DNA of 64,000 nt from a virus: IMG/VR virus record IMGVR_UViG_3300048838_001413, positions 4,836-68,835 of that record, one strand, 5' to 3'. Under the pieces are notes generated by a model. The model saw nothing but the letters and a program-made list of their open reading frames with translations, had not been told where the DNA came from and did no database searches. Below are positions 1,550 through 63,923 of the stretch, piece by piece (the stretch's first letter is position 1; every line of letters starts with the position of its first letter). The position numbers and the translations under genes are program-made.

Positions 1550-1566
1550 TTTTATTGGGTATTAAA

Positions 1567-1599: not shown

Positions 1600-1607
1600 T
1601 GATTGGG

Positions 1608-1736: not shown

Positions 1737-1760
1737 GGCTGTAAAATTTTTCCAATTATT

Positions 1761-3158: not shown

Positions 3159-3174
3159 TGGTTTGAAATTTTTC

Positions 3175-3208
3175 GGCAGGGTTAACTGAGGCCAGCTGCT
3201 ACTCTCGG
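3175..3208 (-). repeat. Leader pseudoknot repeat, copy 3
   Basis: GGCAGGGTTAACTGAGGCCAGCTGCTACTCTCGG. Confidence 0.9.
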
Positions 3209-3247
3209 TTAAAATTTTCCAATTCTGAGATTAAACCCTTATAGAGT

Positions 3248-3454
3248 TTATAATTCGTTAAAGAAAAAGTTGAAATACTCTTTGTTGTGCTCCTGATTAT
3301 TCAGGTAATTACACATTTGCTTTTTTAACGCCTTTGGCATAGCTTTGAATTGCTCCCTTGCCTGAGCTCTTTGCCCGTTGATTACAGATTCGACACACAT
3401 ATCGAAGTACTGTTCTACTGTTTTAAATCCGTAAAATTTTAAAAGCTTTTTCAT
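3248..3454 (-). CDS. Hypothetical protein
   Basis: 68 aa ORF lying between repeat copies 3 and 4. Confidence 0.75.
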   Translation of the reverse strand: MKKLLKFYGFKTVEQYFDMCVESVINGQRAQAREQFKAMPKALKKQMCNYLNNQEHNKEYFNFFFNEL

Positions 3455-3470
3455 TGGTTTGAAATTTTTC

Positions 3471-3504
3471 GGCAGGGTTAACTGAGGCCAGCTGCTACTC
3501 TCGG
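3471..3504 (-). repeat. Leader pseudoknot repeat, copy 4
   Basis: Identical to copy 3, including flanks. Confidence 0.9.
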
Positions 3505-3543
3505 TTAAAATTTTCCAATATTTGAGATAGTCCCTTATAGGGT

Positions 3544-4809
3544 TTAAGCCACTTCCAATTCGAGGACTTTCTTTATTTTCCGTATATTTTTTTTCACGGT
3601 TTTGATTATTTCGTCATGGTATTCCGTTGGCTGATTAAACTTTCCACGGGATTGCCTGATGTCGAAACTTTCGAGGTTAACTTCAATGGTTTCGAGCCTT
3701 TGTTCGCCTTTCTTTGCGCTAAGGATAAGGCTTTCGGGTTTTGCGTAATATTTGTTTTCAAATACGCAATGGTGTAACACATCGCCCTCGATCTGAAATT
3801 CCTGCACACTTTTAAGCGGGGTAATTTCGATATCCTTGCTTTTGATAAGCAGGTCGAAGAATTTTTCTTTTTCCTGTTGAAATTGTGCTTCGGCTTCCCT
3901 GATCTTTTTCGCATTTTCCTCAGCCGTTTGTTTACGACGAAATTCAGCCCGTTTTTTTGCCCAATAATCATGAGCCTGTTGCAGGTTTTCGGGGCATACA
4001 TACTTCGGGTTGCGTGTATCTTTGCCGAAAACAGTGAGATTATCAACCATATCCTGCCAATTGGTTACGTCAGAAACGATGTAATTATTCCGGATGCAGA
4101 TTTTAACGGTTGGCCAGTATTTATCAAGATTAAAACCTTTCACCAAATAATAGCCCAAAAGGTTCATCTGCTTTGCTTTCAGCAGGGTTTCGGCTCTGCA
4201 ATCCGTAATAATAGCCGGAAACAAATCAGAAAAGCTGATCGGGTGGCAGTCTTTTTCAAACCCGTTGCGCTTGATAATATCGATTACTTTTTGCCTCGGG
4301 TAAACGAACGGGAACAGGCGGTAACGCTGATGGAAATTCCGTATTTCCATTTCTGAGTTAAATGACCATAAATCGTAATAAAAGTAACTCATGCCGGTAC
4401 GTTTGGCGATGATGGTTTCTTTGCCATTGCTGTCGTACCACAACTGAACCACTTCGCTCCAAAAGTATTGGGCTTTTTTACCCACCTTGCAACTTTTTTC
4501 CACCCAAAAATATCTAACCACCTGATAGCCGTTTGATACGGTAAGAATTGCAGCATATTCTTTTCCGCTACAGGTTCGCGCTTTAGTACCGAGCAGTTCA
4601 AATGCTGAGCCACATTCGGGGCAGGTGTTTTCTTCGCCCTTATTAGGCCAGCGATGGCCGCACTCAAAACAAACGTACTCTTTTTTGGTGCGATAGCCCC
4701 AATTCGGGAAGCAGTTCTTAAACGCCCACGCCTTTTGCACTGCCGTGATTTTTGGCAGCTTTTTGCTCAGGCTGAGGATCTTTTCCTGTGTTTTATTTTT
4801 CGGCTTCAT
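3544..4809 (-). CDS. PcfJ domain-containing protein
   Basis: Zn ribbon CFECGH...CPECG; C-terminal EGDVLHHCVF...ETIEV...QSRG; adjacent to PcfK. Confidence 0.85.
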   Translation of the reverse strand: MKPKNKTQEKILSLSKKLPKITAVQKAWAFKNCFPNWGYRTKKEYVCFECGHRWPNKGEENTCPECGSAFELLGTKARTCSGKEYAAILTVSNGYQVVRYFWVEKSCKVGKKAQYFWSEVVQLWYDSNGKETIIAKRTGMSYFYYDLWSFNSEMEIRNFHQRYRLFPFVYPRQKVIDIIKRNGFEKDCHPISFSDLFPAIITDCRAETLLKAKQMNLLGYYLVKGFNLDKYWPTVKICIRNNYIVSDVTNWQDMVDNLTVFGKDTRNPKYVCPENLQQAHDYWAKKRAEFRRKQTAEENAKKIREAEAQFQQEKEKFFDLLIKSKDIEITPLKSVQEFQIEGDVLHHCVFENKYYAKPESLILSAKKGEQRLETIEVNLESFDIRQSRGKFNQPTEYHDEIIKTVKKNIRKIKKVLELEVA

Positions 4810-4820
4810 TTCAGGCAGTT

Positions 4821-5237
4821 TTAGAAAAGTGATAACTGGCTTTTGCTGTGGGATTGCTCCGGTTCGTCGGTTTCATCCGTTTCATCGGCCTCCGGTTCGG
4901 TTTCGTCGGGTTCATCGGTTTCATCGGTTTCATCGGTTTCCGTTTCCGTTTCGGGTTCAACCTCGACAACAGCCTCGGGAGCATGAATTACTTCACAGTT
5001 AACCGGTTGGCCAACCTCGAGGTTATCTTCGTCAAAGTAATGCACCGCCATGCCGTACACTTCGGCATCGGTAAAGGCATTGCAGCCGCTTTTCTTCACC
5101 TGATTGAGAATATAGGTTACACAGTCGTCAATGTTTTTCCCCTCTTTGCCCAGGGAAATAGCGAATTGATCATCACGAACGGCTCGCATGGCAATGTATT
5201 CGGTGATAACGTTTGTAAAACTTTCGGTAGCTTTCAT
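4821..5237 (-). CDS. PcfK-like protein with acidic DET-repeat tail
   Basis: KNIDDCVTYILNQVKKSGCNAFTDAEVYGMAVHYFDED; ends QLSLF. Confidence 0.85.
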   Translation of the reverse strand: MKATESFTNVITEYIAMRAVRDDQFAISLGKEGKNIDDCVTYILNQVKKSGCNAFTDAEVYGMAVHYFDEDNLEVGQPVNCEVIHAPEAVVEVEPETETETDETDETDEPDETEPEADETDETDEPEQSHSKSQLSLF

Positions 5238-5251
5238 TGGTTTGATATTTC

Positions 5252-5285
5252 GGCAGGGTTAACTGAGGCCAGCTGCCACTCTCAG
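5252..5285 (-). repeat. Leader pseudoknot repeat, copy 5
   Basis: GGCAGGGTTAACTGAGGCCAGCTGCCACTCTCAG. Confidence 0.9.
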
Positions 5286-5315
5286 TGAAAATTTTCCAAT
5301 ATTTAATCAAAGCCC

Positions 5316-5390
5316 TTATAGCAGTCTTACCAACTGAAAGGCCAGGTAAATTATCGCGATTGCGATAACCGCGGGGGTAATTAAACCCAT
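5316..5390 (-). CDS. 24-aa hydrophobic peptide
   Basis: MGLITPAVIAIAIIYLAFQLVRLL; single TM segment; fills an intergenic gap. Confidence 0.45.
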   Translation of the reverse strand: MGLITPAVIAIAIIYLAFQLVRLL

Positions 5391-5406
5391 GGCTGTGTTG
5401 CAGATT

Positions 5407-5616
5407 TTAATTGCTTTTTTCATGGCTGAGGAAGTTGTAAAATTTATTTTCGTTTTCAACATCGAGCATCCGGACGAAAGTGGTAATCGACCGGTTGCTT
5501 TTTAGGGTAAACTTATTCCATAAGTGAGCGGCCAAATCATTCCCGAATATTTTAGAGAATAAATCCGGTGTTGCTGTGCTCTCAAATGAAAGTAGTTTTT
5601 GGATTTCAGTTTTCAT
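5407..5616 (-). CDS. Hypothetical protein (start MKTEIQK)
   Basis: Overlaps the stop of 5606..5830. Confidence 0.65.
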   Translation of the reverse strand: MKTEIQKLLSFESTATPDLFSKIFGNDLAAHLWNKFTLKSNRSITTFVRMLDVENENKFYNFLSHEKSN

Positions 5617-5830
5617 TTTTATCCTCCCGTAATTTAGCTGCATAATACAGCGAATCAGGTTTCGAGAATCCGGCTTCCACGTAAGCGATAACCCATGCTT
5701 TATTTTCGGGATATCCCTGTTTTTGATAGTGAGTGGCGAGCCGGTTTGCTTTGTCAATTTTGACAAGCATGAAACAGCATATCACGATAACCAGCATGAC
5801 TGCTTTCGCTATGATTTTTTCGGTTTTCAT
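5606..5830 (-). CDS. Small membrane-anchored protein
   Basis: N-terminal hydrophobic helix. Confidence 0.65.
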   Translation of the reverse strand: MKTEKIIAKAVMLVIVICCFMLVKIDKANRLATHYQKQGYPENKAWVIAYVEAGFSKPDSLYYAAKLREDKNEN

Positions 5831-5842
5831 ACTTCCGCCCCC

Positions 5843-7546
5843 TTATATTGCGTGATAACTGAGGCCGACGGTCTGCATGGCTTCATCAAGCTGAGCACGA
5901 CGTTTCTTGGAAAACAAATAACCATCCCTGCGCTCAGTACCAACGAGGATTTTGCATTTACTTCCGTATTTGAGCAAAAATTCATCGGGCAGTAAATCGG
6001 TTAAGCCGACTACGCCAAATGCTTTTTCGGTAACGCTTTCAATTACCGTGAGTAATTCAGGAAGATCTTCCTGCTCCGGCTCCGGTTCGGTTTCATCCAC
6101 GATAGCCTCGGGAATTTCTTCGGCTTCGGGTTCGGGTTTCGGCATTCTTGCGATAATAATTTCCCCGATTTTTCTTTCGGGCTGAATAGGGTTCTCAACT
6201 ACTTCGGCCGGTGCTTCGGCCTCGGGTGAAATTTCCCCGTTTTCATTTTCGGGCTGAATAGTGGTTTCGGCAGGGGTTTCGGCAGGGGTTTCAGCTGCGA
6301 TGATTTCGTCGAAACGGGCTTTCACCTCGCTTGCCAAAATAGTTACACCGCACTTTGATTTCAGGACATCAAGCCCGTGTAAATGCGATAATACTGAATG
6401 CCGGCTGCTTTTGTTGCCATCGCCTGAACAATTCATGATGATTTCGTTACTCCAATCCCGCTCGCTTTTGCGATACATAGCCAACCATTTCTCCAAAAGA
6501 GATTCAGCTTGTACGTTGGAACCCTTGCCGATTTTGCTACCAAATACCGGCTCTCCGATCGCTGCATCATCGATCATAAGCGGCATTAACAGCGTATTGC
6601 CGTTAATAATCATTGCCCTGTTTGAAGCCGACATTTCTATCGTAGTTGATTCGCTTGAAGTGTCGATGCCCTTTATCATATACGAGCCATTAAAAGCGAT
6701 AGGGAAGTACTTTGCACCAAACAGTACGCACGGCAATTCTGTGCGATATTCTGTATTCAAATCCAAATCCTCGGATTCGATTACCAAGCGATCAGGATGG
6801 GCAATCATGAGAACATTTTGCGTTACCTTGTTTGCCGATTTCAGCGCGTTTTTAACAGCGGATACAAAATCCGAAGTTTTTACAATCAGGCTTGCCGGAT
6901 TGTCGATCGGTATTACATTCCAATACTCAGGGTATCTACCCTCGATTAACCTGAAATTAATAATCTGTTTTTCAGAGATTATTTCCAAGCGAGGGTATTG
7001 CGAATTGTCAAAACTCACAACACCCGCTGCTATATTCGCAGCTGCAGCTTTCGGGATAATGACATTGCTGACCGTGGTCTGCTTATCTTTAAACCAGCGA
7101 AGCATATGGGCATCGGTAGCTGCAATTTGTTTTCCGCCTAAAAATACGCCTGACATTGCCGGCCGCAGATCATCATTTCCTGTGAAAGGCACAAGGCTTG
7201 CTACCTGAGCGGCCTCTTCCTCGCTAATTGTGTCGATGTAATCTTTGCAAGGAATAGCAAGCGGAAATTCATCAATATTGCCAATCAACGCAAATTTGCT
7301 TGCAGAGTTTCCTTTTTTTACGTGAAGAAACCCGTCACGGATTTCGGCGGAATCGTAACTGCCCACTTTGTTCAGGGATGTCAGGTCAATTACCCCTTCG
7401 CCCTTGATGTCCGTTTGCACGGAAAGACGAATTTCGAGGTTGTCACTGGTCGCCCATCCGTTTTGAATTAAGGCGGTTTGATCGATGATCGGCAGGGTGC
7501 TGCCTTTGGTAAGTTTCATCATTCGTTTGATGTCACTGTTTTTCAT
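5843..7546 (-). CDS. DNA polymerase III beta-clamp-like protein with long C-terminal extension
   Basis: DnaN-like motifs DDLRPAMSGVFL, AATDAHML, IEGRYPEYWNVIP, IAFNGSY, LLMPL. Confidence 0.8.
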   Translation of the reverse strand: MKNSDIKRMMKLTKGSTLPIIDQTALIQNGWATSDNLEIRLSVQTDIKGEGVIDLTSLNKVGSYDSAEIRDGFLHVKKGNSASKFALIGNIDEFPLAIPCKDYIDTISEEEAAQVASLVPFTGNDDLRPAMSGVFLGGKQIAATDAHMLRWFKDKQTTVSNVIIPKAAAANIAAGVVSFDNSQYPRLEIISEKQIINFRLIEGRYPEYWNVIPIDNPASLIVKTSDFVSAVKNALKSANKVTQNVLMIAHPDRLVIESEDLDLNTEYRTELPCVLFGAKYFPIAFNGSYMIKGIDTSSESTTIEMSASNRAMIINGNTLLMPLMIDDAAIGEPVFGSKIGKGSNVQAESLLEKWLAMYRKSERDWSNEIIMNCSGDGNKSSRHSVLSHLHGLDVLKSKCGVTILASEVKARFDEIIAAETPAETPAETTIQPENENGEISPEAEAPAEVVENPIQPERKIGEIIIARMPKPEPEAEEIPEAIVDETEPEPEQEDLPELLTVIESVTEKAFGVVGLTDLLPDEFLLKYGSKCKILVGTERRDGYLFSKKRRAQLDEAMQTVGLSYHAI

Positions 7547-7563
7547 TTTGATATGGTTTTTTT

Positions 7564-7597
7564 GGCAGGGTTAACTGAGGCCGGCTGCCACTCTCGG
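7564..7597 (-). repeat. Leader pseudoknot repeat, copy 6
   Basis: GGCAGGGTTAACTGAGGCCGGCTGCCACTCTCGG. Confidence 0.9.
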
Positions 7598-7636
7598 TTG
7601 AAAATTTTCCAATATTTTAATTAAGCCCTTATAGGG

Positions 7637-8617
7637 TTAATCAATCCAAAAAGTTCCGCAGTCGAGGCACTTGTTTCCGCATGGGTAATTGTTTATATAA
7701 ATCACGTTTCGGTGCCGGGTATATTTCATATCACATGGGGTGCATTTACCGGCTTTGAATGTGGCCTCATAAATGCGATCTCTTTCGAGAATAGCATTGA
7801 GGCTGCTTTTGGGCGCTTCGATCGCAATTTCGTCATGCTTAAACGAAAAGCAGGTATCATCGCACCAGTTCGAGAACATTCCGCAAACATCATAAGTGTA
7901 ATTATAGCTGATGCTGCGTTCAAATTTCAGATTATCTCTATCGAAAGGAAGCTGAAATTCATGGCCGTTGATTTGGCAATTATCGCCGGAACCATTGCCT
8001 GTATTAATAATTGCGATATGTGCATTTTTGAAAATGACCACATTCATATCGTCTGAAATGTCGAGCAGATCATCAATTCCTGATGTAAAATATACGACCA
8101 ACTGGCCGCCATAACTTGCCTGTTGCAGCATCATATCAATCGCACTATCGTGTATTGAATTTGTAATTGACAGCGCTTTTTTTATGATTATTCTATCAAG
8201 GCGATATGCAGCAGCACTTTGACCCCAACCATCAAATTCAAGCCCCGTATCGTAAAAGAAAATTTCGTCGCCGGTGTTTTTAATCAGCTGTTTAATGTCG
8301 AGATCAACGCTGATAAGATCACGTGCCCAATCTTTGAAATCATCCTCCCATTCGGTTTGTTCGCCAAGTTCGGCTTCAATTTGTTGCGCGAAGTATTCGA
8401 GCACTTCGGTAACTGCATCTCTTTCAAGACCGCAGATATGCTCGAGGTTGCAATCCCACAACTCATTCTCAACCTCCAATAATCCTTCCTTTGAGGAAAT
8501 AATCTTTTCGATTTGCTCTTTGCCCAATTCCTCGCGATAATCCCAATAAACTTCCGGCTGATGTTTTTCGATGTAAGCGATGATCTCTGCTTTTAGGTTT
8601 TCTGAAAGGTTTTCCAT
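7637..8617 (-). CDS. Hypothetical protein with C-terminal Cys/His cluster
   Basis: 326 aa; ends CTPCD...H...PCGNKCLDCGTFWID. Confidence 0.8.
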   Translation of the reverse strand: MENLSENLKAEIIAYIEKHQPEVYWDYREELGKEQIEKIISSKEGLLEVENELWDCNLEHICGLERDAVTEVLEYFAQQIEAELGEQTEWEDDFKDWARDLISVDLDIKQLIKNTGDEIFFYDTGLEFDGWGQSAAAYRLDRIIIKKALSITNSIHDSAIDMMLQQASYGGQLVVYFTSGIDDLLDISDDMNVVIFKNAHIAIINTGNGSGDNCQINGHEFQLPFDRDNLKFERSISYNYTYDVCGMFSNWCDDTCFSFKHDEIAIEAPKSSLNAILERDRIYEATFKAGKCTPCDMKYTRHRNVIYINNYPCGNKCLDCGTFWID

Positions 8618-8632
8618 TTTCGTAATTATTTC

Positions 8633-8665
8633 GGCAGGGGTAACGCTGGCCAGCTGCCACTCAGC
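8633..8665 (-). repeat. Leader pseudoknot repeat, copy 7
   Basis: GGCAGGGGTAACGCTGGCCAGCTGCCACTCAGC. Confidence 0.9.
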
Positions 8666-8675
8666 TTGAAATTAA

Positions 8676-8831
8676 TTACCAGATTTCAGTCCCGTTTGGT
8701 AGCCGGTCAACTTTAAGCCAGTTTTTAATCCATTGCTTTGCAGCGTTGAGGCTTGATTGACTTTCCGGAAAGTTATAACCGTAAAAATTGCCCTGAAGCC
8801 GGAACCACCTGTATTCTTTTCGTTTTGCCAT
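8676..8831 (-). CDS. 51-aa protein not in the ORF track
   Basis: MAKRKEYRWFRLQGNFYGYNFP...GTEIW; ATG 15 nt after repeat copy 8. Confidence 0.7.
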   Translation of the reverse strand: MAKRKEYRWFRLQGNFYGYNFPESQSSLNAAKQWIKNWLKVDRLPNGTEIW

Positions 8832-8846
8832 TTTCGTAATTATTTC

Positions 8847-8880
8847 GGCAGGGGTAACTGAGGCCGGCTGCCACTCTCGG
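8847..8880 (-). repeat. Leader pseudoknot repeat, copy 8
   Basis: GGCAGGGGTAACTGAGGCCGGCTGCCACTCTCGG. Confidence 0.9.
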
Positions 8881-8895
8881 TTGAAAATTTTCCAA

Positions 8896-9174
8896 TTATT
8901 TTAAATTCTCATTATAGGGATATTTCCCCACACCATAAGGAAATTGAACTTTTTGCAAAATGGGCACATGCGCATTCCAAACAACGCGGATAGTTTGCCC
9001 ATTATAAAGCAACGAAATATCACCGGCTGAATAGAACGATCTTTGCACCAATCGTTTCCAATTGGCAATGAGTTCCTTTTTCGTTTTTATACGCCACCCA
9101 ATGTAGCTGTTTCCATACCTGACAACGTATTTGTCGGGTAAACTGTCGCTATAAGCATTCCAAATTCTTTCCAT
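8896..9174 (-). CDS. Hypothetical protein (start MERIWNAY)
   Basis: ATG downstream of the ATTGGAAAATTTT motif. Confidence 0.65.
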   Translation of the reverse strand: MERIWNAYSDSLPDKYVVRYGNSYIGWRIKTKKELIANWKRLVQRSFYSAGDISLLYNGQTIRVVWNAHVPILQKVQFPYGVGKYPYNENLK

Positions 9175-9229
9175 TTTATTTCGTTTTAAGTGAAAATTTT
9201 CCAATATTTTGAAACGGCCTTTATAGAGA

Positions 9230-9532
9230 TTATAATCTCGGCCTGACCTGTTCAACAAACCACCGGTTTTGCGGCCAATTCAACGGCATGTTATATTTTT
9301 CGGCGATCAGCTGATCGTACCTTTCGCTAAATCTTTCGTATTGTACCTCTCCGGCTCTTTTGCTTGAAATTCGTTGAACCAGTACAAGCTTTGTCCCGAA
9401 AAGTTTACGAAAGTTTCCGTCGGTTGTTTTCGGCAGCCTTGCGAAATTCCTTTCGCTGATAATGGTAACGCTCTCTTTCCCTTCGTAAGAAAGGTCGCTG
9501 AGCAAAACATGAAATTGTCGGTTGTTATACAT
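9230..9532 (-). CDS. Hypothetical protein (start MYNNRQF)
   Basis: ORF in a tightly packed operon. Confidence 0.65.
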   Translation of the reverse strand: MYNNRQFHVLLSDLSYEGKESVTIISERNFARLPKTTDGNFRKLFGTKLVLVQRISSKRAGEVQYERFSERYDQLIAEKYNMPLNWPQNRWFVEQVRPRL

Positions 9533-9543
9533 CGCTTTAATTT

Positions 9544-9750
9544 TTAAACGTTTATAATTATCCTGGGCGCAATGTCCCAAAATTTACTTTCCGGTGTGTC
9601 GGCCGGTGCTGTGAATGATTTCCGGTATTCTTGTCCGGTATCTCTCTCGTAATAAGAGAAAACAGCCCATGCAACCTTTTTGCGGCGATCTTTGCTATCC
9701 CTGCGGGAATGATCGTATTTCTCGAGGGATTTTCGGATTAAGTGCGACAT
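9544..9750 (-). CDS. Hypothetical protein
   Basis: 68 aa, operon packing. Confidence 0.65.
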   Translation of the reverse strand: MSHLIRKSLEKYDHSRRDSKDRRKKVAWAVFSYYERDTGQEYRKSFTAPADTPESKFWDIAPRIIINV

Positions 9751-9753
9751 TTT

Positions 9754-9996
9754 TTAGCCCTCCATTGCGAAAAATACACGAACCTTTGCGGGAAAGTATT
9801 GCAGATTTTGTTCAGTGATTACCACTTTCCCTTTATATATCGCCATTGTGCTCTCGTAAATATATTCGAGCTGTCGATAATGAATACGCTCGATAGGGCT
9901 GTTGTGGTTTTTGGCAAGTTCCTCGAAAGATTTAGTTCCGGCAGCTGTAGCCCGCTGCATGGTTGCCACCTCTCTACGCAAAAATGAAATATTCAT
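9754..9996 (-). CDS. Hypothetical protein
   Basis: Start 15 nt after repeat copy 9. Confidence 0.7.
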   Translation of the reverse strand: MNISFLRREVATMQRATAAGTKSFEELAKNHNSPIERIHYRQLEYIYESTMAIYKGKVVITEQNLQYFPAKVRVFFAMEG

Positions 9997-10011
9997 GATA
10001 TAAATAATTTC

Positions 10012-10044
10012 GGCAGGGGTAACGGAGGCCGGCTGCCACTCTCC
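10012..10044 (-). repeat. Leader pseudoknot repeat, copy 9
   Basis: GGCAGGGGTAACGGAGGCCGGCTGCCACTCTCC. Confidence 0.9.
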
Positions 10045-10073
10045 AAATTTTTTCCAATTTTTTTCAAAGCCCT

Positions 10074-10841
10074 TTATAGGGATTTAATAATCCATTCCTT
10101 ACGGTCGTTTTCCTCACGTTCCTCACGGGCTTTTGTTTCGAGTTTTTCAACCGATAGCATTAAATTCCATACGAAAATTGAGCCCCGAAGTTCATCCATC
10201 ATCTGCTGAACAGGTATCAAGCGCTTTTTAAACGATTGAATGAATTTATCTTTTGGCACCTCGGTTATTTTGCCATTATTCCCGATAAAGAACCGGTCAT
10301 TTCCCAACACGCTCGAAAGTAAGCTAACAACCTCCAAGGTTACATCTTCGGCCTTAATTTCTCCGTTATATATCCACCGCAATCCCCTGCTTGTGAAAAA
10401 TGATGTCGTTCTGCAAGCCAGTAAGCTTTTCAATGCTTTTTCAAGCTTTTCAACGCAAAATATATTGGTTCCGGTATCTCTCATGCCGTAATAGAATTCG
10501 CCGGTATAGCCAGCAAGTTCTTTCTTATCGTGATATGTAAAATCACGATGAAAATGTTTCAGGTAAGGGGTTACGATTGGCTGTAATTGCTCATGGTAAG
10601 GCTTTACTATCGGGTTTACATAACCCAAACCGCCGAGAGTTACCCCTTTCATGTAATACTTCGAGCGGGTAAAGTGGTTTCGCTCTGCAATGCTCATTAC
10701 GATTTCGCAAATGTGTTTTCCATTCACCTTAACCTCGAATTTGCAATAATTCGTGGTTTTAATCGAAGAGGTAAATTGTTCGGGGTTGCCGTATTTTTTC
10801 AGCATTTTCTCCCGCAAATTCGTGTAATTAATAGCGTTCAT
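10074..10841 (-). CDS. Hypothetical protein
   Basis: 255 aa ORF. Confidence 0.75.
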   Translation of the reverse strand: MNAINYTNLREKMLKKYGNPEQFTSSIKTTNYCKFEVKVNGKHICEIVMSIAERNHFTRSKYYMKGVTLGGLGYVNPIVKPYHEQLQPIVTPYLKHFHRDFTYHDKKELAGYTGEFYYGMRDTGTNIFCVEKLEKALKSLLACRTTSFFTSRGLRWIYNGEIKAEDVTLEVVSLLSSVLGNDRFFIGNNGKITEVPKDKFIQSFKKRLIPVQQMMDELRGSIFVWNLMLSVEKLETKAREEREENDRKEWIIKSL

Positions 10842-10845
10842 GGTT

Positions 10846-10938
10846 TCAGGGTTTTAAGTTGATTAGCAATATTGTTGCGAAAAATACCATCGCGACAATT
10901 ACAAACAATTTTTCGGCTGTTGACGGTTCAGTTTCCAT
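10846..10938 (-). CDS. 30-aa membrane peptide
   Basis: METEPSTAEKLFVIVAMVFFATILLINLKP; leader AATAATTACGAAAATG as in neighbouring genes. Confidence 0.55.
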   Translation of the reverse strand: METEPSTAEKLFVIVAMVFFATILLINLKP

Positions 10939-10998
10939 TTTCGTAATTATTTTCGGCATTTGTGAAAATTTTCCAATTATTTTAAATTCGCTTAATAG

Positions 10999-11235
10999 TT
11001 ATTCCCAATAAGCAATTTCAGACAACCGGTTCATGTTTTGCAAACCGGTGAAATGGTTGATAATTACCACGCTGAAAATGAAATTAGACGGGATATTAAG
11101 TACATTCGAGCAATAGCACTTGGCAACATTTACCGATTCAAACGCAGCCCCTTTTTCGATGTGATTATTCACATAATATGCAAGCCACGAAAGGGCTAAA
11201 AATTGCTGCGAGGTGAGATTTTTTTTGTAATCCAT
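10999..11235 (-). CDS. Hypothetical protein, first gene of the early region
   Basis: Start 16 nt after repeat copy 10. Confidence 0.7.
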   Translation of the reverse strand: MDYKKNLTSQQFLALSWLAYYVNNHIEKGAAFESVNVAKCYCSNVLNIPSNFIFSVVIINHFTGLQNMNRLSEIAYWE

Positions 11236-11251
11236 TTTCGTAATTATTATC

Positions 11252-11284
11252 GGCAGGGGTAACGGAGGCCGGCTGCCACTCTCC
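11252..11284 (-). repeat. Leader pseudoknot repeat, copy 10
   Basis: Identical core to copy 9. Confidence 0.9.
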
Positions 11285-11730: not shown

Positions 11731-12246
11731 TCAGGCAAACGATCAGGCAAACGATCAGGCAAACGATCAGGCAAACGATCAGGCCAACGATCAGGCCAAC
11801 GATCAGGGAAACGATCAGGAAACGATCAGGAAACGATCAGGGAAACGATCAGGAAACGATCAGGCAAACGATCAGGCAAACGATCAGGCAAACGATCAGG
11901 GAAACGATCAGGGAAACGATCAGGCAAACGATCAGGGAAACGATCAGGGAAACGATCAGGCAAACGATCAGGCAAACGATCAGGAAACGATCAGGGAAAC
12001 GATCAGGAAACGATCAGGGAAACGATCAGGCAAACGATCAGGGAAACGATCAGGGAAACGATCAGGGAAACGATCAGGGAAACGATCAGGCAAACGATCA
12101 GGGAAACGATCAGGCAAACGATCAGGCAAACGATCAGGGAAACGATCAGGAAACGATCAGGGAAACGATCAGGCAAACGATCAGGCAAACGATCAGGCAA
12201 ACGATCAGGAAACGATCAGGGAAACGATCAGGGAAACGATCAGGCA
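11731..12246. repeat. Tandem array of 43 x 11-12 bp units AAACGATCAGG(C/G/-)
   Basis: Direct count of GATC-containing units. Confidence 0.97.
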
Positions 12247-36188: not shown

Positions 36189-37313
36189 ATGGAAAAGTAC
36201 AGAAAAGCAAAGCTTAATGACCGGGACAATGATTTGTTGAAACAATGGTATGTTGAGTATATGTTTGAGCATCCGGAAAAGGGTGTTCTTGTTCCCTTCA
36301 GGAAGTATATTTCATTAAAACTTAAAACAGGTACGGCACGCAGAATGAAAGCGGATCAGTTGGTTCGTGAGTTAAATGAGTGGCTGGCTATGGGCGGAGA
36401 TCCGTTTGCAACGGAGAGCCTGGGAAAAACAAAAACACTTACGGCCGTAAAACGGATTCTTGCGCTGAAGAAAGCCACCAGCCGGCCACGGACTTATACT
36501 ACCTATAAGGATGCTGTAAATAAGATTGAGAACTTTTTGATTGAGCGAAAGCTGACTGATCTGGCGGTTGAGGATGTTTCGGTAACGGTTGGCCAACAAT
36601 TTTCGGATTACCTGATAGAGAAGCTCCGGCTCGGGAACCGGAGCCATAACAATATGATTAATAATATGCGAACGATGTGGACGATGATGAACAAGCGATT
36701 TAACGTTCATATCAATCCATGGCAGGCGGTTGATTTTTTGCCGGAAACAGAGCCAAGTATCGTGATGTTTACGCCGGCAGAAATGAAAAAGGTAAGAACG
36801 CAGCTTCGCAAAGATGATTTCCAGTTGTGGCTTTGCGCGGGATTGGTTTTTTATTGTGCTTTGCGGCCACAGGAGATTGTAAGATTGAAGGTGTTTAATA
36901 TTATAACCGAGGAAGAGGGTTTGCTGCTTGACGGGCGAATAACGAAGAATAAGAAAAGCACATGGGTGAATATTCCATCGCCTGAACTTGTGAAAGATTT
37001 TAAAAGCCTGAAGCTTGAAAGCCTGGATTCGGAAATGTATATTTTCGCGAAGAATTTGTTACCAGGTACAAAAGAGATAGCGCCTACCCGAATAGCTGAG
37101 CGTTGGCGAAAGTGGGCTGATGCGAATAAGATAGATAAGGGAATTTATGATTTGAAACACAATGCTGCCGGGATGGCCAGTGATGCAGGAATACCCTTGC
37201 GGGAATTGCAGCTGCATTTCAGGCATCATTCGCTGGAGCAGACAGAGCAGTATATAAAGCGATTCAGGCGGGAGGTAAATACAGGATTTAATAAGCGCTA
37301 CCCGAAGATGTAA
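36189..37313 (+). CDS. Tyrosine recombinase (phage integrase)
   Basis: ALRPQEI, TKNKK, YDLKH, RHHSLEQTEQY catalytic boxes. Confidence 0.9.
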   Translation: MEKYRKAKLNDRDNDLLKQWYVEYMFEHPEKGVLVPFRKYISLKLKTGTARRMKADQLVRELNEWLAMGGDPFATESLGKTKTLTAVKRILALKKATSRPRTYTTYKDAVNKIENFLIERKLTDLAVEDVSVTVGQQFSDYLIEKLRLGNRSHNNMINNMRTMWTMMNKRFNVHINPWQAVDFLPETEPSIVMFTPAEMKKVRTQLRKDDFQLWLCAGLVFYCALRPQEIVRLKVFNIITEEEGLLLDGRITKNKKSTWVNIPSPELVKDFKSLKLESLDSEMYIFAKNLLPGTKEIAPTRIAERWRKWADANKIDKGIYDLKHNAAGMASDAGIPLRELQLHFRHHSLEQTEQYIKRFRREVNTGFNKRYPKM

Positions 37314-58741: not shown

Positions 58742-58861
58742 TGCGGGTTTTTTTTGGTGATGTGAATGAGTTGCGTATATATTTTTGGTGATACACGCCA
58801 AATGGTTTCCGCGATTAGCGGGGGATTGGGGTTATTGCGGGTATATATTCGTTGGCAGCAA

Positions 58862-59095
58862 TTAAAGCCCCAACGAGCGGCATATTTCAAACCTTTTTTG
58901 ATCTTTCCCCTGTTCATGTACATATTTAAGCACATCTGACCATCGATTGAATTTATCCACTTTAATATCACCCCAGCCGGATAATTCATAGGTTGAGAAA
59001 TATTTGTGTTTAAATCCTAAGTTGATTAAGGCATCAACAACATCTTTTTGAAATTTTGTGAGCTTTTGATATTGCTCTAATTCGTCTTTTTCCAT
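58862..59095 (-). CDS. Cassette 1 hypothetical protein (start MEKDELE)
   Basis: Between GTTGGCAGCA (58851) and TGCTGCCAAC (59111). Confidence 0.7.
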   Translation of the reverse strand: MEKDELEQYQKLTKFQKDVVDALINLGFKHKYFSTYELSGWGDIKVDKFNRWSDVLKYVHEQGKDQKRFEICRSLGL

Positions 59096-59113
59096 CTGAT
59101 TAAAATTAACTGC

Positions 59114-59207
59114 TGCCAACAGGTCGGTATGAAACAAGCCGCCGACAGCGATTTACAACTTTGAACAGTCTTACAAGCGGCCTGTTCATACCGCCAATGC
59201 GTTACCT
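59114..59207 (+). other. attC-like site 1
   Basis: TGCCAAC-aggt-CGGTATGAAACAAGCCGC...GCGGCCTGTTCATACCG-ccaatgc-GTTACCT. Confidence 0.85.
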
Positions 59208-59393
59208 GCCATTTTTACGGACATAGTAACCTACTAATCTTTTATGCTGAGATTCTTCCATTTTTTTAACAAGCTCTTTAAGAATTTGCAAGGTTTCGCT
59301 TTCATTTTGTTCATCGTCTGCGCCATCGGTATTGTGACCGATGAAATCTATTGCATCTTCAACCGCTTGTATATATTTGCTTTTTACGTGCAT
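59202..59393 (-). CDS. Cassette 2 hypothetical protein
   Basis: Between GTTACCTGCC (59201) and GGCAGGTAAC (59410); stop codon lies inside the R box. Confidence 0.7.
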   Translation of the reverse strand: MHVKSKYIQAVEDAIDFIGHNTDGADDEQNESETLQILKELVKKMEESQHKRLVGYYVRKNGR

Positions 59394-59412
59394 AATTTTG
59401 AAATAAAACGGC

Positions 59413-59509
59413 AGGTAACAAACAGTTTATAAAATGCTACGAGCCAAATAAGTGAAGTGAGTTGATTGGTAATTTTAGACAGCACTTCACAAACTGCCAT
59501 TCGTTGGCA
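59413..59509 (+). other. attC-like site 2
   Basis: AGGTAAC-aaa-CAGTTTATAAAATGCT...AGCACTTCACAAACTG-ccattc-GTTGGCA. Confidence 0.8.
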
Positions 59510-59514
59510 AACAT

Positions 59515-59802
59515 TTAAGATTCGTAATCAACAAGGCTTATGTGCGCTTGAAATTCAGGCGTTATCTGATAGATTTTTTTGCCTTCACGAATAATAAAAT
59601 GTGGTTCAAGTCTCAAATGCTGACAAACAAGCTTGATGCTGTTCATCGTTGAGTTATACTTTTGATTGGCTTTCTCAACCAATCGTTCAGCTTCTCTAAT
59701 TTCTTGGAGAGCTTGTTTTTGTTCTTCGGATAAATTGACAAGCATTTTAACGCCTTTGTCTTTATCTCCCTGTAATTCGTTGACTATTTCTGAAAATGAC
59801 AT
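59515..59802 (-). CDS. Cassette 3 hypothetical protein (start MSFSEIV)
   Basis: Between GTTGGCAAA (59503) and TTTGCCAAC (59816). Confidence 0.7.
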   Translation of the reverse strand: MSFSEIVNELQGDKDKGVKMLVNLSEEQKQALQEIREAERLVEKANQKYNSTMNSIKLVCQHLRLEPHFIIREGKKIYQITPEFQAHISLVDYES

Positions 59803-59817
59803 AATTAAAAAACGATT

Positions 59818-59947
59818 TGCCAACACTGCATAAAATTAAGCGGGCAGTGTTGTTATGTTTCCGCTTTTGGCTCTTTATTAAATTTTATTTCGGGCGGACA
59901 ATTCCGAGCCTTGAAAGCCCGCCTAATCTTATGCTTGAACGTTAGCG
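59818..59947 (+). other. attC-like site 3
   Basis: TGCCAAC-act-GCATAAAATTAAGCGGGC...GCCCGCCTAATCTTATGC-ttgaac-GTTAGCG. Confidence 0.85.
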
Positions 59948-59948
59948 G

Positions 59949-60539
59949 TCATTTTAAAGAGCATCCCGACTCCGACATTACCCAATCAAACATTCCACCG
60001 AAAAACTTTTCAGGATTATCAAACGCTTCCTTGCACTTTGATAAGAACAATTCCATTTTAGGCAATTCAGGCAAGTGCTTTTTTTCTACATTCCATAAAA
60101 GCTGATTAGGCTTTAGAACAAGTCCATTGGTTTTTACTTCCTCTAAATGTTCACCAAGCATCATATAATGAAATGCAGCTTTTATAGTTGGGCTTCTATT
60201 TGCCCCAGCTTGACAATGAAGTAATACTTTCCATTCAGGATTCCAAGTATAGATTTGATGTAAAACTTGCAATGCTCCAAACATTGAGTTTAAACCCATC
60301 AGTTCGCCACTTTCTCCCATCGGGAAATAGTAGTTAAGTTTTCCTTCTTTCATTATTTCTTCTGAATTACCTAAGTAAAATTCGTCTGATACGTTAATTA
60401 TTACTTGACATTCATTGTGTTTGCCTTCCGCTTTTATCTCTTTTGAAACAGGAAATCTATCAACGATTATGTTCTCGGAAATAAAACGAACCGCTAACAT
60501 CGGTTGGGCAAAATTGCCGTTTTCGTTTTCAATTGACAT
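59949..60539 (-). CDS. Cassette 4: protein-tyrosine / dual-specificity phosphatase-like protein
   Basis: CX5R loop VLLHCQAGANRS; between GTTAGCGGT (59941) and ACCGCTAAC (60490). Confidence 0.75.
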   Translation of the reverse strand: MSIENENGNFAQPMLAVRFISENIIVDRFPVSKEIKAEGKHNECQVIINVSDEFYLGNSEEIMKEGKLNYYFPMGESGELMGLNSMFGALQVLHQIYTWNPEWKVLLHCQAGANRSPTIKAAFHYMMLGEHLEEVKTNGLVLKPNQLLWNVEKKHLPELPKMELFLSKCKEAFDNPEKFFGGMFDWVMSESGCSLK

Positions 60540-60616
60540 TTTATCTTAATTTAAAAATTTGTAATCCTAATGAAGTTTTGTGTTCGGCAACTTCGCCAAG
60601 CCGAGAACCGTTACCA
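60492..60616 (+). other. attC-like site 4
   Basis: CGCTAAC-a-TCGGTTGGGCAAAATTGCCG...CGGCAACTTCGCCAAGCCGA-gaacc-GTTACCA. Confidence 0.85.
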
Positions 60617-60622
60617 GCAACT

Positions 60623-60868
60623 TTAAAAAGGCAGCCCCGACTGAGCAAGCCGATACTGGCTCATATATTCATCGAAGTAGTAACCTTCTTTTGTTGGTGG
60701 ATTACAATTTTTATCTACTCCATCATTCCAACCTTTGAGGCGGACAAAATAACCAGATTTGCTTTTGTGAAGCTGATTTACACACTGCTCATCAGAAAAG
60801 TATGCTGGTAACACATTATTGCCGACAATGTCGGGTTCTGGGTGTTCTTTAATATCCATGCTATTCAT
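60623..60868 (-). CDS. Cassette 5 hypothetical protein
   Basis: Between GTTACCAGCA (60610) and TGCTGGTAAC (60803); start lies inside attC 5. Confidence 0.65.
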   Translation of the reverse strand: MNSMDIKEHPEPDIVGNNVLPAYFSDEQCVNQLHKSKSGYFVRLKGWNDGVDKNCNPPTKEGYYFDEYMSQYRLAQSGLPF

Positions 60869-60938
60869 ACATATTTGTTTTAAGTTGAAAATTTGTGCTG
60901 TTTAAACCGCCACTGCGGCAATAATCTGACCGTTAGCA
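60806..60938 (+). other. attC-like site 5
   Basis: TGGTAAC-ac-ATTATTGCCG...CGGCAATAAT-ctgacc-GTTAGCA. Confidence 0.85.
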
Positions 60939-60945
60939 GAAAGCA

Positions 60946-61176
60946 CTACTCCATCGCTTCGTTAATACTTCCTACTGCTTCATCAATGCTATTCCACGCA
61001 TCCTCTAATGTTGAAACAGCTTCTTCAAACTTTTGTCCCTTTTCAGTTTGTTGCAATCCTTCTGAAAGGTTGTCAAACTTTTCTTGTTCACCATCTTTAA
61101 TGGCATCAATAATTTCTTGTGCTTCGCCAAGTAAAGCAAGAGCCTTTTCTAATTCTTTTCTGTCGTTTTTGTTCAT
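60946..61176 (-). CDS. Conserved small phage protein
   Basis: EQEKFDNLSEGLQQTEKGQ motif. Confidence 0.75.
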   Translation of the reverse strand: MNKNDRKELEKALALLGEAQEIIDAIKDGEQEKFDNLSEGLQQTEKGQKFEEAVSTLEDAWNSIDEAVGSINEAME

Positions 61177-61238
61177 CGTTGTTATTTTTAAAATTGTTGT
61201 TAATTAAAAGCGGTTGGGAAGTAGAATGCATAAATTTT

Positions 61239-61466
61239 TTATTTGTTAATATAGCAGTTCACAAAATCTTCCCAAGTGCAGCATAAATCCCCACAAAAAT
61301 CAAATTCTTCTTCTGTGATTTTAGAACCGAATTTCATTAAATCTGAATTTAATTTGTTCAATAGTTTTTCGTGAGCTAATCTTTCAGTTCTGCCTATAAC
61401 TTCTCTGTTTTCGACTGCTCCTATTTGGCTGTAAGTGGTTAAGAATTTTTGTGTATTTGCTTTCAT
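61239..61466 (-). CDS. Hypothetical protein (start MKANTQ)
   Basis: ORF in operon. Confidence 0.6.
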   Translation of the reverse strand: MKANTQKFLTTYSQIGAVENREVIGRTERLAHEKLLNKLNSDLMKFGSKITEEEFDFCGDLCCTWEDFVNCYINK

Positions 61467-61486
61467 AATTTTTAAGTGTTTATTTC

Positions 61487-61729
61487 TTATCTTAAAAACG
61501 CTTCGTTGAAAGAAACAACTTTTAGCGGTTGTCTTGTCCATGTACCAACAGGGGATAATATGATTCCAATTGATGAACCTCTGCTCATGGATTCAGCATG
61601 TTCAAAGTAAATCGGGAAAGAATGCTTCCATTCCATGTTTGGGTTTCTTAATAAGTGCCTTGCTTCATTAAATTGTTCTTCGTTGACAATTTCAAGACAT
61701 TCATCTGAATCAAATTGAAAGTTTTTCAT
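61487..61729 (-). CDS. Hypothetical protein
   Basis: 80 aa ORF. Confidence 0.6.
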   Translation of the reverse strand: MKNFQFDSDECLEIVNEEQFNEARHLLRNPNMEWKHSFPIYFEHAESMSRGSSIGIILSPVGTWTRQPLKVVSFNEAFLR

Positions 61730-61741
61730 CGCTTAATTCGG

Positions 61742-62212
61742 TTAATGATTTATTTGGGCACATAATTCTTTTCCTGTTAAAATTACAACGATTTTAAGGG
61801 TGCTTAATTCGCGGCCAAATTTGCGAACAACTTCCTCAATTTTTTTGATATGCCGTTCGCGGGCTTTGTCGGAATTTTTGTACCGGTTAAAAACAATGGA
61901 GCTGAGAAATTCACGGGTGTGGCCAGTGTATTTTGCTATACCCGCCACCGTAAAGGGGTAACGATCAAAGAACTCAGCAACATCCATGCTTCCTTCTTCA
62001 TCGAGTCCCGAAAGCCTTATGCCCGATAACTCAGCTCCGATCTTGTTCAGATATTCATTCACCAGCACCAGGTTATTGTAGTCGGTATTGGTGTATTGTT
62101 TGGTTTTTGTCAGTTTTACAATCCATTCGCGGCTCCGGTGCAGCGAAACAGCAATCTGACTTTGTTTGAACGGGTATTTTTCAAATACCATCTGAAGATT
62201 TAACATCATCAT
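61742..62212 (-). CDS. Tandem double-HTH-like regulator (start MMMLNLQ)
   Basis: Internal duplication FEKYPFKQSQIAVSLHRSREW / FDRYPFTVAGIAKYTGHTREF. Confidence 0.65.
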   Translation of the reverse strand: MMMLNLQMVFEKYPFKQSQIAVSLHRSREWIVKLTKTKQYTNTDYNNLVLVNEYLNKIGAELSGIRLSGLDEEGSMDVAEFFDRYPFTVAGIAKYTGHTREFLSSIVFNRYKNSDKARERHIKKIEEVVRKFGRELSTLKIVVILTGKELCAQINH

Positions 62213-62875: not shown

Positions 62876-62908
62876 GGCAGGGTTAACGGAGGCCAGCTGC
62901 TACTCTCA
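62876..62908 (-). repeat. Leader pseudoknot repeat, copy 11
   Basis: GGCAGGGTTAACGGAGGCCAGCTGCTACTCTCA. Confidence 0.85.
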
Positions 62909-62913
62909 GGGTA

Positions 62914-63276
62914 TTATTTTTTGTGCTGATCGCTGAATTTGAACCGCACGATTTTTACTGCATCGTGAAATACCACAGCATTTATTTTTACGCCTATAGC
63001 TGTTTTCAGGCGTTCGCAGGTAATTTTATAGCTTTCGCGGCAAGGCTCGATCAATGAGGCATAGTATTGAGCATCGGTCAATGCAGGCGGGGGCGGGGGT
63101 ATGGTTTCGGGTTCAATGGGTTGGCCGACGACCACGGCAATATCTTCGCAGGTTTTTTCAAGACCCTCGAGTTTTTTTGTGCTTAATTTTTGCAGGAAGT
63201 CGAGGCGAAATCCGTTTCGGGTAAGAATCCGGATGATGGTTTCCCGGTAATTGGCTTCAACAGGAGAATAATTCAT
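62914..63276 (-). CDS. Hypothetical protein
   Basis: Start 17 nt after repeat copy 12. Confidence 0.7.
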   Translation of the reverse strand: MNYSPVEANYRETIIRILTRNGFRLDFLQKLSTKKLEGLEKTCEDIAVVVGQPIEPETIPPPPPALTDAQYYASLIEPCRESYKITCERLKTAIGVKINAVVFHDAVKIVRFKFSDQHKK

Positions 63277-63293
63277 TTTTATAAGGATTTATT

Positions 63294-63326
63294 GGCAGGG
63301 TTAACGCTGGCCGGCTGCCACTCAGC
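63294..63326 (-). repeat. Leader pseudoknot repeat, copy 12
   Basis: GGCAGGGTTAACGCTGGCCGGCTGCCACTCAGC. Confidence 0.9.
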
Positions 63327-63338
63327 TGAAAAATTATT

Positions 63339-63629
63339 TTAGAAATTACCGTCAATCCGGCCATCAATAATGGCATTGAATGTTGTGTAAATGTCTGATC
63401 CCTTTCGATAGTGCCCTGCTTTGGTGGTGCTGGATAATGGACCAGCGACCTTATGCAATAATGTTGCGTATAAAAGTGTATCAATCATTCGCATGTCGGC
63501 AATGGCTTCTTTCGGTTCGGCATTCTCGAGAGCTGCTTCCATAAACAGCAATACTTCATGTTCTTTCATCACAGAAGTGTTGTACTTTACACAGGAAACA
63601 CGAGGTTTGAAGTTGGCTTGAATTTTCAT
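63339..63629 (-). CDS. Hypothetical protein
   Basis: 96 aa ORF. Confidence 0.65.
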   Translation of the reverse strand: MKIQANFKPRVSCVKYNTSVMKEHEVLLFMEAALENAEPKEAIADMRMIDTLLYATLLHKVAGPLSSTTKAGHYRKGSDIYTTFNAIIDGRIDGNF

Positions 63630-63635
63630 AATCCG

Positions 63636-63872
63636 CTATTTAACATTCAGGTTTGGAAATTTATGGCCAAGGTGTTTTCCGATTCTTGCCTCGAGTTGTG
63701 TTTTGAGGTTTTTCTTCCTGGTTAACAACGACTGAGATTTTTGCAGTACAAGCAGATCATCAATCAGCTCGAGTTCATCAAGCATATCTTGTTTAGATTT
63801 GATGTCGGGTGACTTCTGCAGTACTTTTACCCATGTGGGTAATTCTCTGATTTGAATTTGGCTGAATCCCAT
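63636..63872 (-). CDS. Hypothetical protein (start MGFSQIQ)
   Basis: ATG 18 nt after repeat copy 13. Confidence 0.65.
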   Translation of the reverse strand: MGFSQIQIRELPTWVKVLQKSPDIKSKQDMLDELELIDDLLVLQKSQSLLTRKKNLKTQLEARIGKHLGHKFPNLNVK

Positions 63873-63890
63873 TGTTTTGGTGTTATTATT

Positions 63891-63923
63891 GGCAGGGTTA
63901 ACGCTGACCGGCTGCCACTCAGC
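63891..63923 (-). repeat. Leader pseudoknot repeat, copy 13
   Basis: GGCAGGGTTAACGCTGACCGGCTGCCACTCAGC. Confidence 0.9.

Follow-up and report, generated by a model that had tools for sequence, protein, structure and literature searches.

A likely integron-type cassette array in a phage genome with hairpin sites that probably double as translation-start modules

The window, as we call the DNA considered here, comprises the final 64 kb of a virus record of 68.8 kb (IMG/VR IMGVR_UViG_3300048838_001413) that is rated as 100% complete. Nearly all genes of the window are carried on the minus strand and, within positions 58851-60938, five small minus-strand open reading frames (ORFs) alternate with five imperfect hairpins, A to E, resembling the attC sites of integrons. 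On the plus strand each hairpin opens with a core of the form xxxxAAC and closes with one of the form GTTxxxx. We consider that this region probably constitutes an integron-type cassette array, with an attI-like end and five cassettes but no integrase in the phage, and that its hairpins double as translation-start modules. The features of the array are as follows.

58773-58857, minus strand: attI-like array end, with the half-core GTTGGCA at 58851-58857 (plus strand) and no hairpin beyond it
58773-58782 and 58840-58849: two copies of a TATATAC-type motif in the attI-like end
58862-59095, minus strand: cassette 1 ORF, 77 amino acids from the ATG at 59095, after the site A core; no family match
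59114-59207, minus strand: site A, from TGCCAAC to GTTACCT (plus strand)
59202-59393, minus strand: cassette 2 ORF, 63 amino acids, with its ATG 20 nucleotides after the site B core
59413-59509, minus strand: site B, from AGGTAAC to GTTGGCA; inverted repeat I9
59515-59805, minus strand: cassette 3 ORF, 96 amino acids from the ATG at 59805; frame open to a GTG overlapping the site C core
59818-59947, minus strand: site C, from TGCCAAC to GTTAGCG; inverted repeat I1
59949-60539, minus strand: cassette 4 ORF, 196 amino acids, dual-specificity-phosphatase-like; first 15 codons inside site D
60492-60616, minus strand: site D, from CGCTAAC to GTTACCA (plus strand); arms 60500-60519 and 60585-60604 (inverted repeat I2); member of a widespread family of sites
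60623-60868, minus strand: cassette 5 ORF, 81 amino acids, no family match; the candidate starts are ATGs in the site E loop
60806-60938, minus strand: site E, from TGGTAAC to GTTAGCA; arms 60812-60824 and 60916-60928 (inverted repeat I11); the terminal complete hairpin

Each of the five ORFs is flanked by core 7-mers that are perfect complements (20 of 20 variable bases); between the two cores of a single hairpin, by contrast, just 9 of 20 variable bases match. Integron-type exchange inside the core would be expected to leave such complementarity across the ORF, which also holds in related arrays. AAC and GTT occur in the cores of all five window sites, and the four outer bases fit RYYY/RRRY loosely, as in GTTACCT; linked sites from an unfiltered scan of 14 loci nearly always read AAC-G ... 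T-GTT. The stop codon of cassette 2 (59202-59204) sits within the site A core GTTACCT (59201-59207), as was proposed in an initial annotation, made from the sequence of the window alone, which had placed this stop in the GTTA of an R box. To the right of 60938 the partner core TGCTAAC is absent from the plus strand, and no further cassette is counted beyond site E. An inverted repeat near 61215-61275 was considered as an extra site and rejected, as it lacks AAC and GTT cores. Just past site E, at 60946-61729, are three small minus-strand ORFs that we place outside the array, one of which matches phrog_4068 (E 4.7e-21, function unknown) and one, weakly, phrog_5638. The GC content is 0.36 in the region 60001-62000 and 0.40-0.47 in the remaining 2-kb bins of the window, in which a scan at Rfam gathering thresholds gave no matches and a tRNA scan no genes.

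Only cassettes 4 and 5 of the five start inside a site. In the remaining three an ATG is found past the core, the frame of cassette 1 being open further upstream to a TTG at 59137, within site A. The ATG of cassette 4 (60537-60539) lies within the loop of site D, and residues 8-19 of its product, NGNFAQPM-LAVR, are encoded by the stem arm and the core. For cassette 5 the site E loop provides ATGs at 60866-60868 and 60857-60859, and arm and core together encode DIVGNNV-LPA. The initial annotation, in which sites D and E were numbered attC 4 and attC 5, had read both N-termini in this way, and this was borne out. It had also allowed that the true starts might lie downstream of the R boxes; past the core, no in-frame ATG, GTG or TTG is found for 48 codons in the phosphatase-like ORF and for 49 codons in the 81-amino-acid ORF.

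Evidence that the loop ATG is used comes from related loci, designated below by L and a number. A protein search with the 196-amino-acid ORF yielded nine loci that matched its first 16-29 residues only, and in these loci it is other genes that follow the same hairpin. Exact copies of the 3' arm of site D were found in 61 IMG/VR stretches, which together with the window carry 63 copies. In 55 of these a multiple of three separates a loop ATG from the core, with the long ORF in that frame, and this is so in all 55 even as the distance between ATG and core varies (-42, -51, -54, -63). Seven copies (L017, L020, L031, the first copy of L049, L054, L065 and L067) have a loop ATG that is displaced by one base; their long ORF (73-259 amino acids) shifts along with it, while the ATG overlapping the core opens only 7-25 codons. 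The ORF therefore shares the frame of the loop ATG in 62 of the 63 copies. In the remaining one, L062, the 5' half of the hairpin is deleted and an upstream ORF is fused in frame, via the 3' arm, to a 101-amino-acid cassette ORF, yielding a natural fusion protein made at the hairpin. Site E has four further copies, and the ORFs of all five copies differ and are all in frame with an ATG at -57.

Among homologues of the phosphatase, conservation sets in with the first residues past the core, and relatives outside such sites (L005, L007) are conserved from just after the position of the core and carry unrelated N-termini of similar length. One methylase family begins with MK(I/V)LNLYAG when outside cassettes, and its 13 cassette forms read ...PM-LAPVRVLNLYAG, with no start codon after the core; 43 of the 63 returned loci were examined in this comparison, rows with identity and E-value equal to those of kept rows having been left out. 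From the co-variation of frames we infer that translation starts at the loop ATG, and the comparative data support the proposal of the initial annotation that these sites serve both as translation starts and as coding sequence. The phage's own long genes are preceded by an A-rich, G-poor region without a Shine-Dalgarno sequence, and the D loop is alike. The canonical -7 promoter motif of Bacteroidetes is TAnnTTTG; it was not seen in the D loop when this was inspected by eye, and no promoter is claimed.

A different start would be the NTG that overlaps the core, which is ATG in D and GTG in E, or else some unconventional codon further on, in sites that are genuine recombination sites with an unused loop ATG. 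Core-overlapping NTG triplets are indeed present (ATG in D, GTG in C and E, TTG in B) and fall in the ORF frame in four of the five window sites, but this explanation appears very improbable to us given the seven shifted D copies, where the long ORF follows the loop ATG and not the core ATG, the in-frame loop ATG that 62 of 63 D copies and all five E copies possess, and the retention of a multiple of three at varying distances in the 55 copies that are in frame with the core.

The resulting leader peptides are recognisable, as the initial annotation had anticipated: the site D leader (MS.E..NGNFAKPM-L) occurs on about 33 unrelated proteins and the site E leader (..IVGNNV-L) on five different proteins. 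Its suggestion that this peptide scar could serve as a key for finding such arrays held up less well. A single D arm is read as NGNFAKPM or as ERQFCQTD, depending on which of the two frames the ATG sets, and compensatory changes in the stem rewrite the peptide, as in L114, which carries the same methylase with a different leader; the peptide is thus a weak key, and searching by DNA sequence or structure works better.

Insight into which ORF owns a given hairpin came from ORFs that are present in several contigs. Their similarity ends exactly after the AAC that follows the stop codon and, on the other side, precisely in front of the AAC that marks the distal end of the upstream hairpin. The downstream contexts number eight for a 200-amino-acid methylase (10 loci), four for a 98-amino-acid ORF and three for a 101-amino-acid ORF. 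Downstream of the ORFs, arrays end in a bare half-core and a motif consisting of AAC, about three bases and TATAT(A/G), which was read by eye in about 17 of 44 terminal half-sites, while upstream of the ORFs they end in a complete hairpin. The window fits this layout, with its half-core at 58851-58857, two TATATAC-type repeats and an outer core of site E that has no partner. These breakpoints and ends show ORFs that read towards the putative attI, with the hairpin mostly located 5' of its own ORF, an arrangement that is the reverse of canonical integrons, where the ORF lies on the top strand, is followed by attC at its 3' end and reads away from attI and the promoter Pc. When the other strand is considered, the order integrase-attI-cassettes is canonical and every ORF is reversed. 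The strand exchanged at 5'-AAC defines the bottom strand (Nivina et al. 2016), and by this definition the exchanged strand here would be the mRNA-sense strand. As the hairpin stays with its ORF on short time scales, ordinary shuffling would preserve the leader. Many metagenome contigs match site D alone and diverge at both cores, and L019, L034 and L073 carry a D site with its outer core replaced.

Eight related arrays adjoin a gene for a recombinase that is Xer/IntI-like. The gene lies 50-130 nucleotides past the TATAT motif, and in the same direction, in L025/L106, L030 (where it is truncated), L067, L068, L072 and L105, and AAC with nnnTATAT(A/G) directly after it follows the terminal half-sites beside the recombinase genes of L030, L067, L068, L072, L105 and L106. 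The L103 recombinase passed an XerA-type model (234.5 bits, cut-off 220) and scored 218.5 bits with the integron-integrase model (cut-off 265), leaving profile positions 181-237 unmatched, a segment that we take to be the place of the IntI-specific insertion. The L105 recombinase matched VchIntIA (2a3v) with 138 bits in two stretches, as against 130-136 bits for XerA/XerC-like proteins. A homologue search found the array-associated recombinase encoded by none of five whole phage records with large arrays, so the enzyme would usually act in trans. We conclude that exchange is probably carried out by a tyrosine recombinase of this Xer/IntI-like type, supplied in trans. The phage itself encodes a single tyrosine recombinase, at 36189-37313 on the plus strand (PF00589, 38.6 bits), which lies 22 kb from the array on the strand opposite to almost all other genes; it is unrelated to the array-associated family and is probably the phage's own integrase.

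The support for the sites as structures is strong when it is comparative. Folding of single sequences was moderately better than for shuffles (minus strand, z -1.4 to -2.9; plus strand, z +0.2 to -2.5), the minus strand folding better than the plus strand in all five window sites; for site A the values are -17.8 kcal/mol (z -2.88) and -14.6 kcal/mol, and for site C -18.0 and -15.5 kcal/mol, for the minus and plus strand, respectively. In site B three G.T wobble pairs form on the minus strand only, and the full hairpin is not the minimum-energy fold (z -1.75) and falls below the threshold of a scan for AAC...GTT hairpins. That scan, applied to the whole genome, returned 52 hits, of which many fall within a tandem repeat, compared with 5, 9 and 10 in block shuffles, and because it is not specific on its own it was used only together with the core-complementarity link. 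A covariance model built from 35 D sites found 224 matches in 630 kb of fetched loci, with sense scores far above antisense scores; in the window, site D scored 143.9 bits on the minus strand and 26.7 bits on the plus strand, and site E 31.2 bits. Among the best 150 of the 224 matches, 145 of which are distinct, paired cells amounted to 96.3%, compared with 73.4% in shuffles and 35-44% with slid partners, in an alignment that was fitted to the covariance model and therefore favours structure; the slid controls argue that the structural signal is real. All 19 stem pairs show changes on both sides, so that it is the DNA or RNA structure, and not the peptide, that is conserved. Three nearly fixed G.T wobbles pair on the ORF-sense strand only. 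In 89 of the 145 distinct sites an ATG within the site opens a read-through ORF of 60 or more amino acids in sense, as against 3 of 145 in antisense; once the 40 exact D-type sites are set aside, this applies to 50 of 105 in sense and 3 of 105 in antisense. Of 157 distinct cassettes validated by core complementarity, the first ATG lies after the core in 76, only in the site in 42 and in both places in 27, a further 11 having no sense ORF of at least 35 amino acids and one opening upstream of the site; these proportions are biased, since site D was used to collect most loci.

Conserved stem-loops of this kind might also be something other than recombination sites, namely RNA regulatory elements (terminators, stabilisers or translational controls) maintained between phages and shuffled by homologous recombination, to which the shuffling of the promoter-stem-loop (PeSL) cassettes of T4-type phages is ascribed. 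Wobble pairs on the mRNA-sense strand would suit an RNA element; the D arms are nearly invariant, and long enough for homologous exchange, with different loop subtypes occurring between identical arms; and the five array-bearing phages encode no matching recombinase. Yet the breakpoints fall exactly at AAC and GTT and not inside the arms, each ORF retains its four variable core bases, which are complementary from one side of it to the other (188 perfect links, perfect complementarity being the search criterion), and terminal half-cores share the TATAT motif with an Xer/IntI-like recombinase next to them in eight arrays. We therefore regard this explanation as highly unlikely.

The observations can be combined into a model in which a cassette, in the ORF sense, consists of a core RYYYAAC-G, a bulge of 3-4 nucleotides, a 5' arm, a variable loop, a 3' arm, T-GTTRRRY, the ORF body and a half-core RYYYAA that is complementary to the ORF-side core. 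In long-loop sites such as D and E, the loop bears an A-rich putative initiation region and the ATG, so that translation would run through the 3' arm and core and add a leader of 15-20 residues, the sequence of which would be set by the hairpin and not by the function of the protein. It is the ORF-sense strand that would be exchanged, for the most part at the AAC in the core remote from the ORF, with the sites probably folding as single strands during recombination, and the hairpin would consequently travel with the ORF that it initiates while the ORFs read towards attI. More broadly, Bacteroidota phages, and elements in Bacteroidota genomes, would share a distinct integron-like capture system in which the hairpin is an expression module (5' leader, start and first 15-20 codons), with cassettes reading towards attI, an Xer-like enzyme without the IntI insertion and hairpins with a one-sided bulge. 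To this general proposal we give about an even chance.

Several observations weigh against the model. Five different hairpin bodies precede one methylase family (80-93% protein identity) and, in other metagenome contigs, homologues of the phosphatase lie behind a variant-D or an E-like hairpin; exchange thus also occurs at the ORF-side core, and the travelling of a hairpin with its ORF is a tendency and not a rule. The AAC-bearing arm has a bulge of 3-4 nucleotides in 139 of the 145 sites, with 0 nucleotides opposite it in 138 of 145, and the stem otherwise contains one 1x1 mismatch. In canonical sites the extrahelical bases belong to the arm facing the cleaved AAC, and the central spacer is unpaired on both sides (Nivina et al. 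2016). This layout differs from the one found here, and by that rule the bulge would mark the other strand as recombinogenic. In the D copies that are in frame with the core, and in site E, the ATG or GTG overlapping the core could also serve as a start. The proportions given above also favour long-loop sites, as site D itself served to collect most of the loci. As for the enzyme, the integron-integrase model TIGR02249 had no matches in the genome of the window, the recombinase gene is inverted in L087 and L103, and its absence from the five whole phage records, noted above, belongs here as well. Finally, one metatranscriptome contig spans a phosphatase homologue and its upstream site, for which DNA carry-over is possible, and the comparison of contigs gave breakpoints at the D cores and no evidence on transcription starts.

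The points concerning exchange and the bulge would find an explanation in a canonical orientation, which the initial annotation had implied. Each hairpin would then be the attC of the ORF upstream of it and the ORF-sense strand the top strand, while start and leader would be borrowed from the preceding cassette, so that shuffling would make new fusions. Exchange at the ORF-side core, seen in the five site bodies before one methylase family and in the other site types before phosphatase homologues, is in line with this, as are stop codons in or beside the following core, which are found in many canonical cassettes, and the bulged arm, which by the extrahelical-base rule would make the plus strand the recombined one. 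This orientation nevertheless seems unlikely: the upstream D-type site is kept in all 13 methylase cassette forms, sequences diverge right after the AAC past the stop (in eight, four and three contexts), a bare half-core with an attI-like motif is found downstream of the ORFs and a complete hairpin upstream, and the ORF frame is that of the loop ATG in 62 of 63 copies. The invariant unit is the ORF with its two complementary half-cores, the upstream hairpin being retained over short divergence, although not always. The expectation in the initial annotation that shuffling could create fusions holds in part, since exchange at the ORF-side core and the L062 deletion fusion do occur, but these appear rarer than the ordinary shuffling that, judged by the breakpoints, keeps the leader.

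The cargo of D-type sites comprises about 33 unrelated families (clustering gave 35, including one fragment and one artefact). Pfam searches with 33 representatives identified DNA methylases of PF01555 in three, PF00145 in two, PF05063 in one and PF02384 in one, and most representatives had no Pfam match. The cassette 4 protein is termed dual-specificity-phosphatase-like in view of a weak Pfam DSPc match (25.4 bits, E 1.3e-5, below the cut-off of 33.5) and of the motif HCQAGANRS, which has the HCxxGxxR(S/T) pattern of the catalytic loop. A protein search in viral contigs found no relatives of the 81-amino-acid ORF of cassette 5, and a blastn search with site D against 50,697 phage records gave no match. 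The D arms were found in 17 stretches of species-representative genomes, mostly short contigs of metagenome-assembled genomes, and 15 of the 17 are titled as Bacteroidota lineages; these relatives point to Bacteroidota as the hosts of the phage. Among sequencing runs the best held 0.15 of the sampled words and none holds the whole array, so no habitat is claimed. Some cassettes in Bacteroidota contigs of metagenome-assembled genomes (L103 4559-6671, L087 967-3341, L086 and L083) are 1.5-2.5 kb long and carry large ORFs (175-506 amino acids) on the strand opposite to the usual one; one of these ORFs, in L103, has a DPPY motif, which is typical of DNA methylases.

Two other types of repeat were observed in the window. 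Allowing one mismatch, there are 13 occurrences of the motif GGCAGGGTTAAC (0.21 expected), always on the plus strand, in 327-11263 and 62876-63902. The motif is part of a short hairpin located about 15-25 nucleotides upstream of the ATGs of minus-strand genes and reads 'taaccctgcc' before several starts. It probably serves a single gene block, extending across the ends of the record, as a promoter or regulatory element specific to this phage. At 11900-12244 there is a tandem repeat of the 12-base unit GGAAACGATCAG in 29 copies with 94% matches, which may begin earlier, given that the scan began at 11900; these could be the iterons of a replication origin or a binding array.

Among known systems, the array most invites comparison with the cassettes and attC sites of integrons, both class 1 integrons and the chromosomal arrays of Vibrio with near-identical repeats. 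Shared features are imperfect hairpins bounded by RYYYAAC / GTTRRRY-type cores, complementary variable core bases across the cassette, exchange at a conserved AAC, a single family of sites common to many unrelated cassettes, and an array end at an attI-like site. In contrast to integrons, the ORFs here would read towards attI with the hairpin 5' of the ORF and the start codon supplied by the loop; a one-sided bulge of 3-4 nucleotides replaces the central spacer and extrahelical bases; and no IntI was found, the associated recombinases scoring below the integron-integrase cut-off with the segment 181-237 unmatched. The usual integron cassette is a promoterless ORF with attC behind it, and its expression depends on a common promoter at attI. 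In the present system the site lies in front of the ORF and bears the start codon, so that each cassette would be a self-contained translation unit and the site would be under a double constraint, as hairpin and as coding sequence, providing a natural experiment on the shaping of a peptide by DNA structure.

Cassettes that borrow a start provide the nearest parallel to the leaders, and ORF-11 in attI1 is one such case. A borrowed upstream start has also been described for single cassettes, for example aacA4 in fused cassettes (PMC8876359). These resemble the present arrays in that a start-less ORF is translated from site or neighbouring sequence and acquires an N-terminal extension but, as they are presented in that source, they are sporadic and dependent on context or on attC deletions, whereas here the start would be built into the site family and conserved with it. 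A search of the literature, covering main texts, returned no account of start codons in attC loops, of leaders set by hairpins or of cassettes reading towards attI. For annotation, one consequence is that identical 15-residue N-termini are to be expected on unrelated phage proteins and should not be trimmed.

Integrase-less attC arrays (CALINs) are already known from phages, with DNA methyltransferases among their cargo and the Flavobacteriia phage Polaribacter P12002L among the cases (Qi et al. 2023, PMC9892861). The present array and its relatives are similar in both respects, and differ in their putative attC-internal starts, leader peptides and ORFs directed towards attI, none of which is mentioned in the parts of that account on which we draw. 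If our reading is correct, it would explain how phages can exchange start-less anti-restriction genes, methyltransferases for example, as ready-to-express units. For the recombinases, the closest counterpart is an 'integron-like' subgroup of simple tyrosine recombinases, the members of which do not all have the IntI insertion (Smyshlyaev et al. 2021, PMC8138268); the array-associated enzymes are likewise about equally near to VchIntIA and to XerA/XerC-like proteins, but they are absent from the phage of the window and their role on the hairpin sites is putative.

The PeSL cassettes of T4-type phages are comparable in that small accessory ORFs, in a hyperplastic region of the phage genome, are separated by conserved stem-loop modules carrying expression signals; the sites described here differ in their core-precise breakpoints and complementary half-cores. 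Integrons are reported to be rare in Bacteroidetes, with only In0 elements known earlier and one complete integron, in Salinibacter ruber (IntegronFinder 2.0, PMC9024848), and the present system, if real, would escape IntegronFinder-type searches for complete integrons. DNA or structure searches for its sites would provide a handle on cassette arrays in phage metagenomes, and the arrays themselves point to a lineage of integron-like platforms in Bacteroidota.

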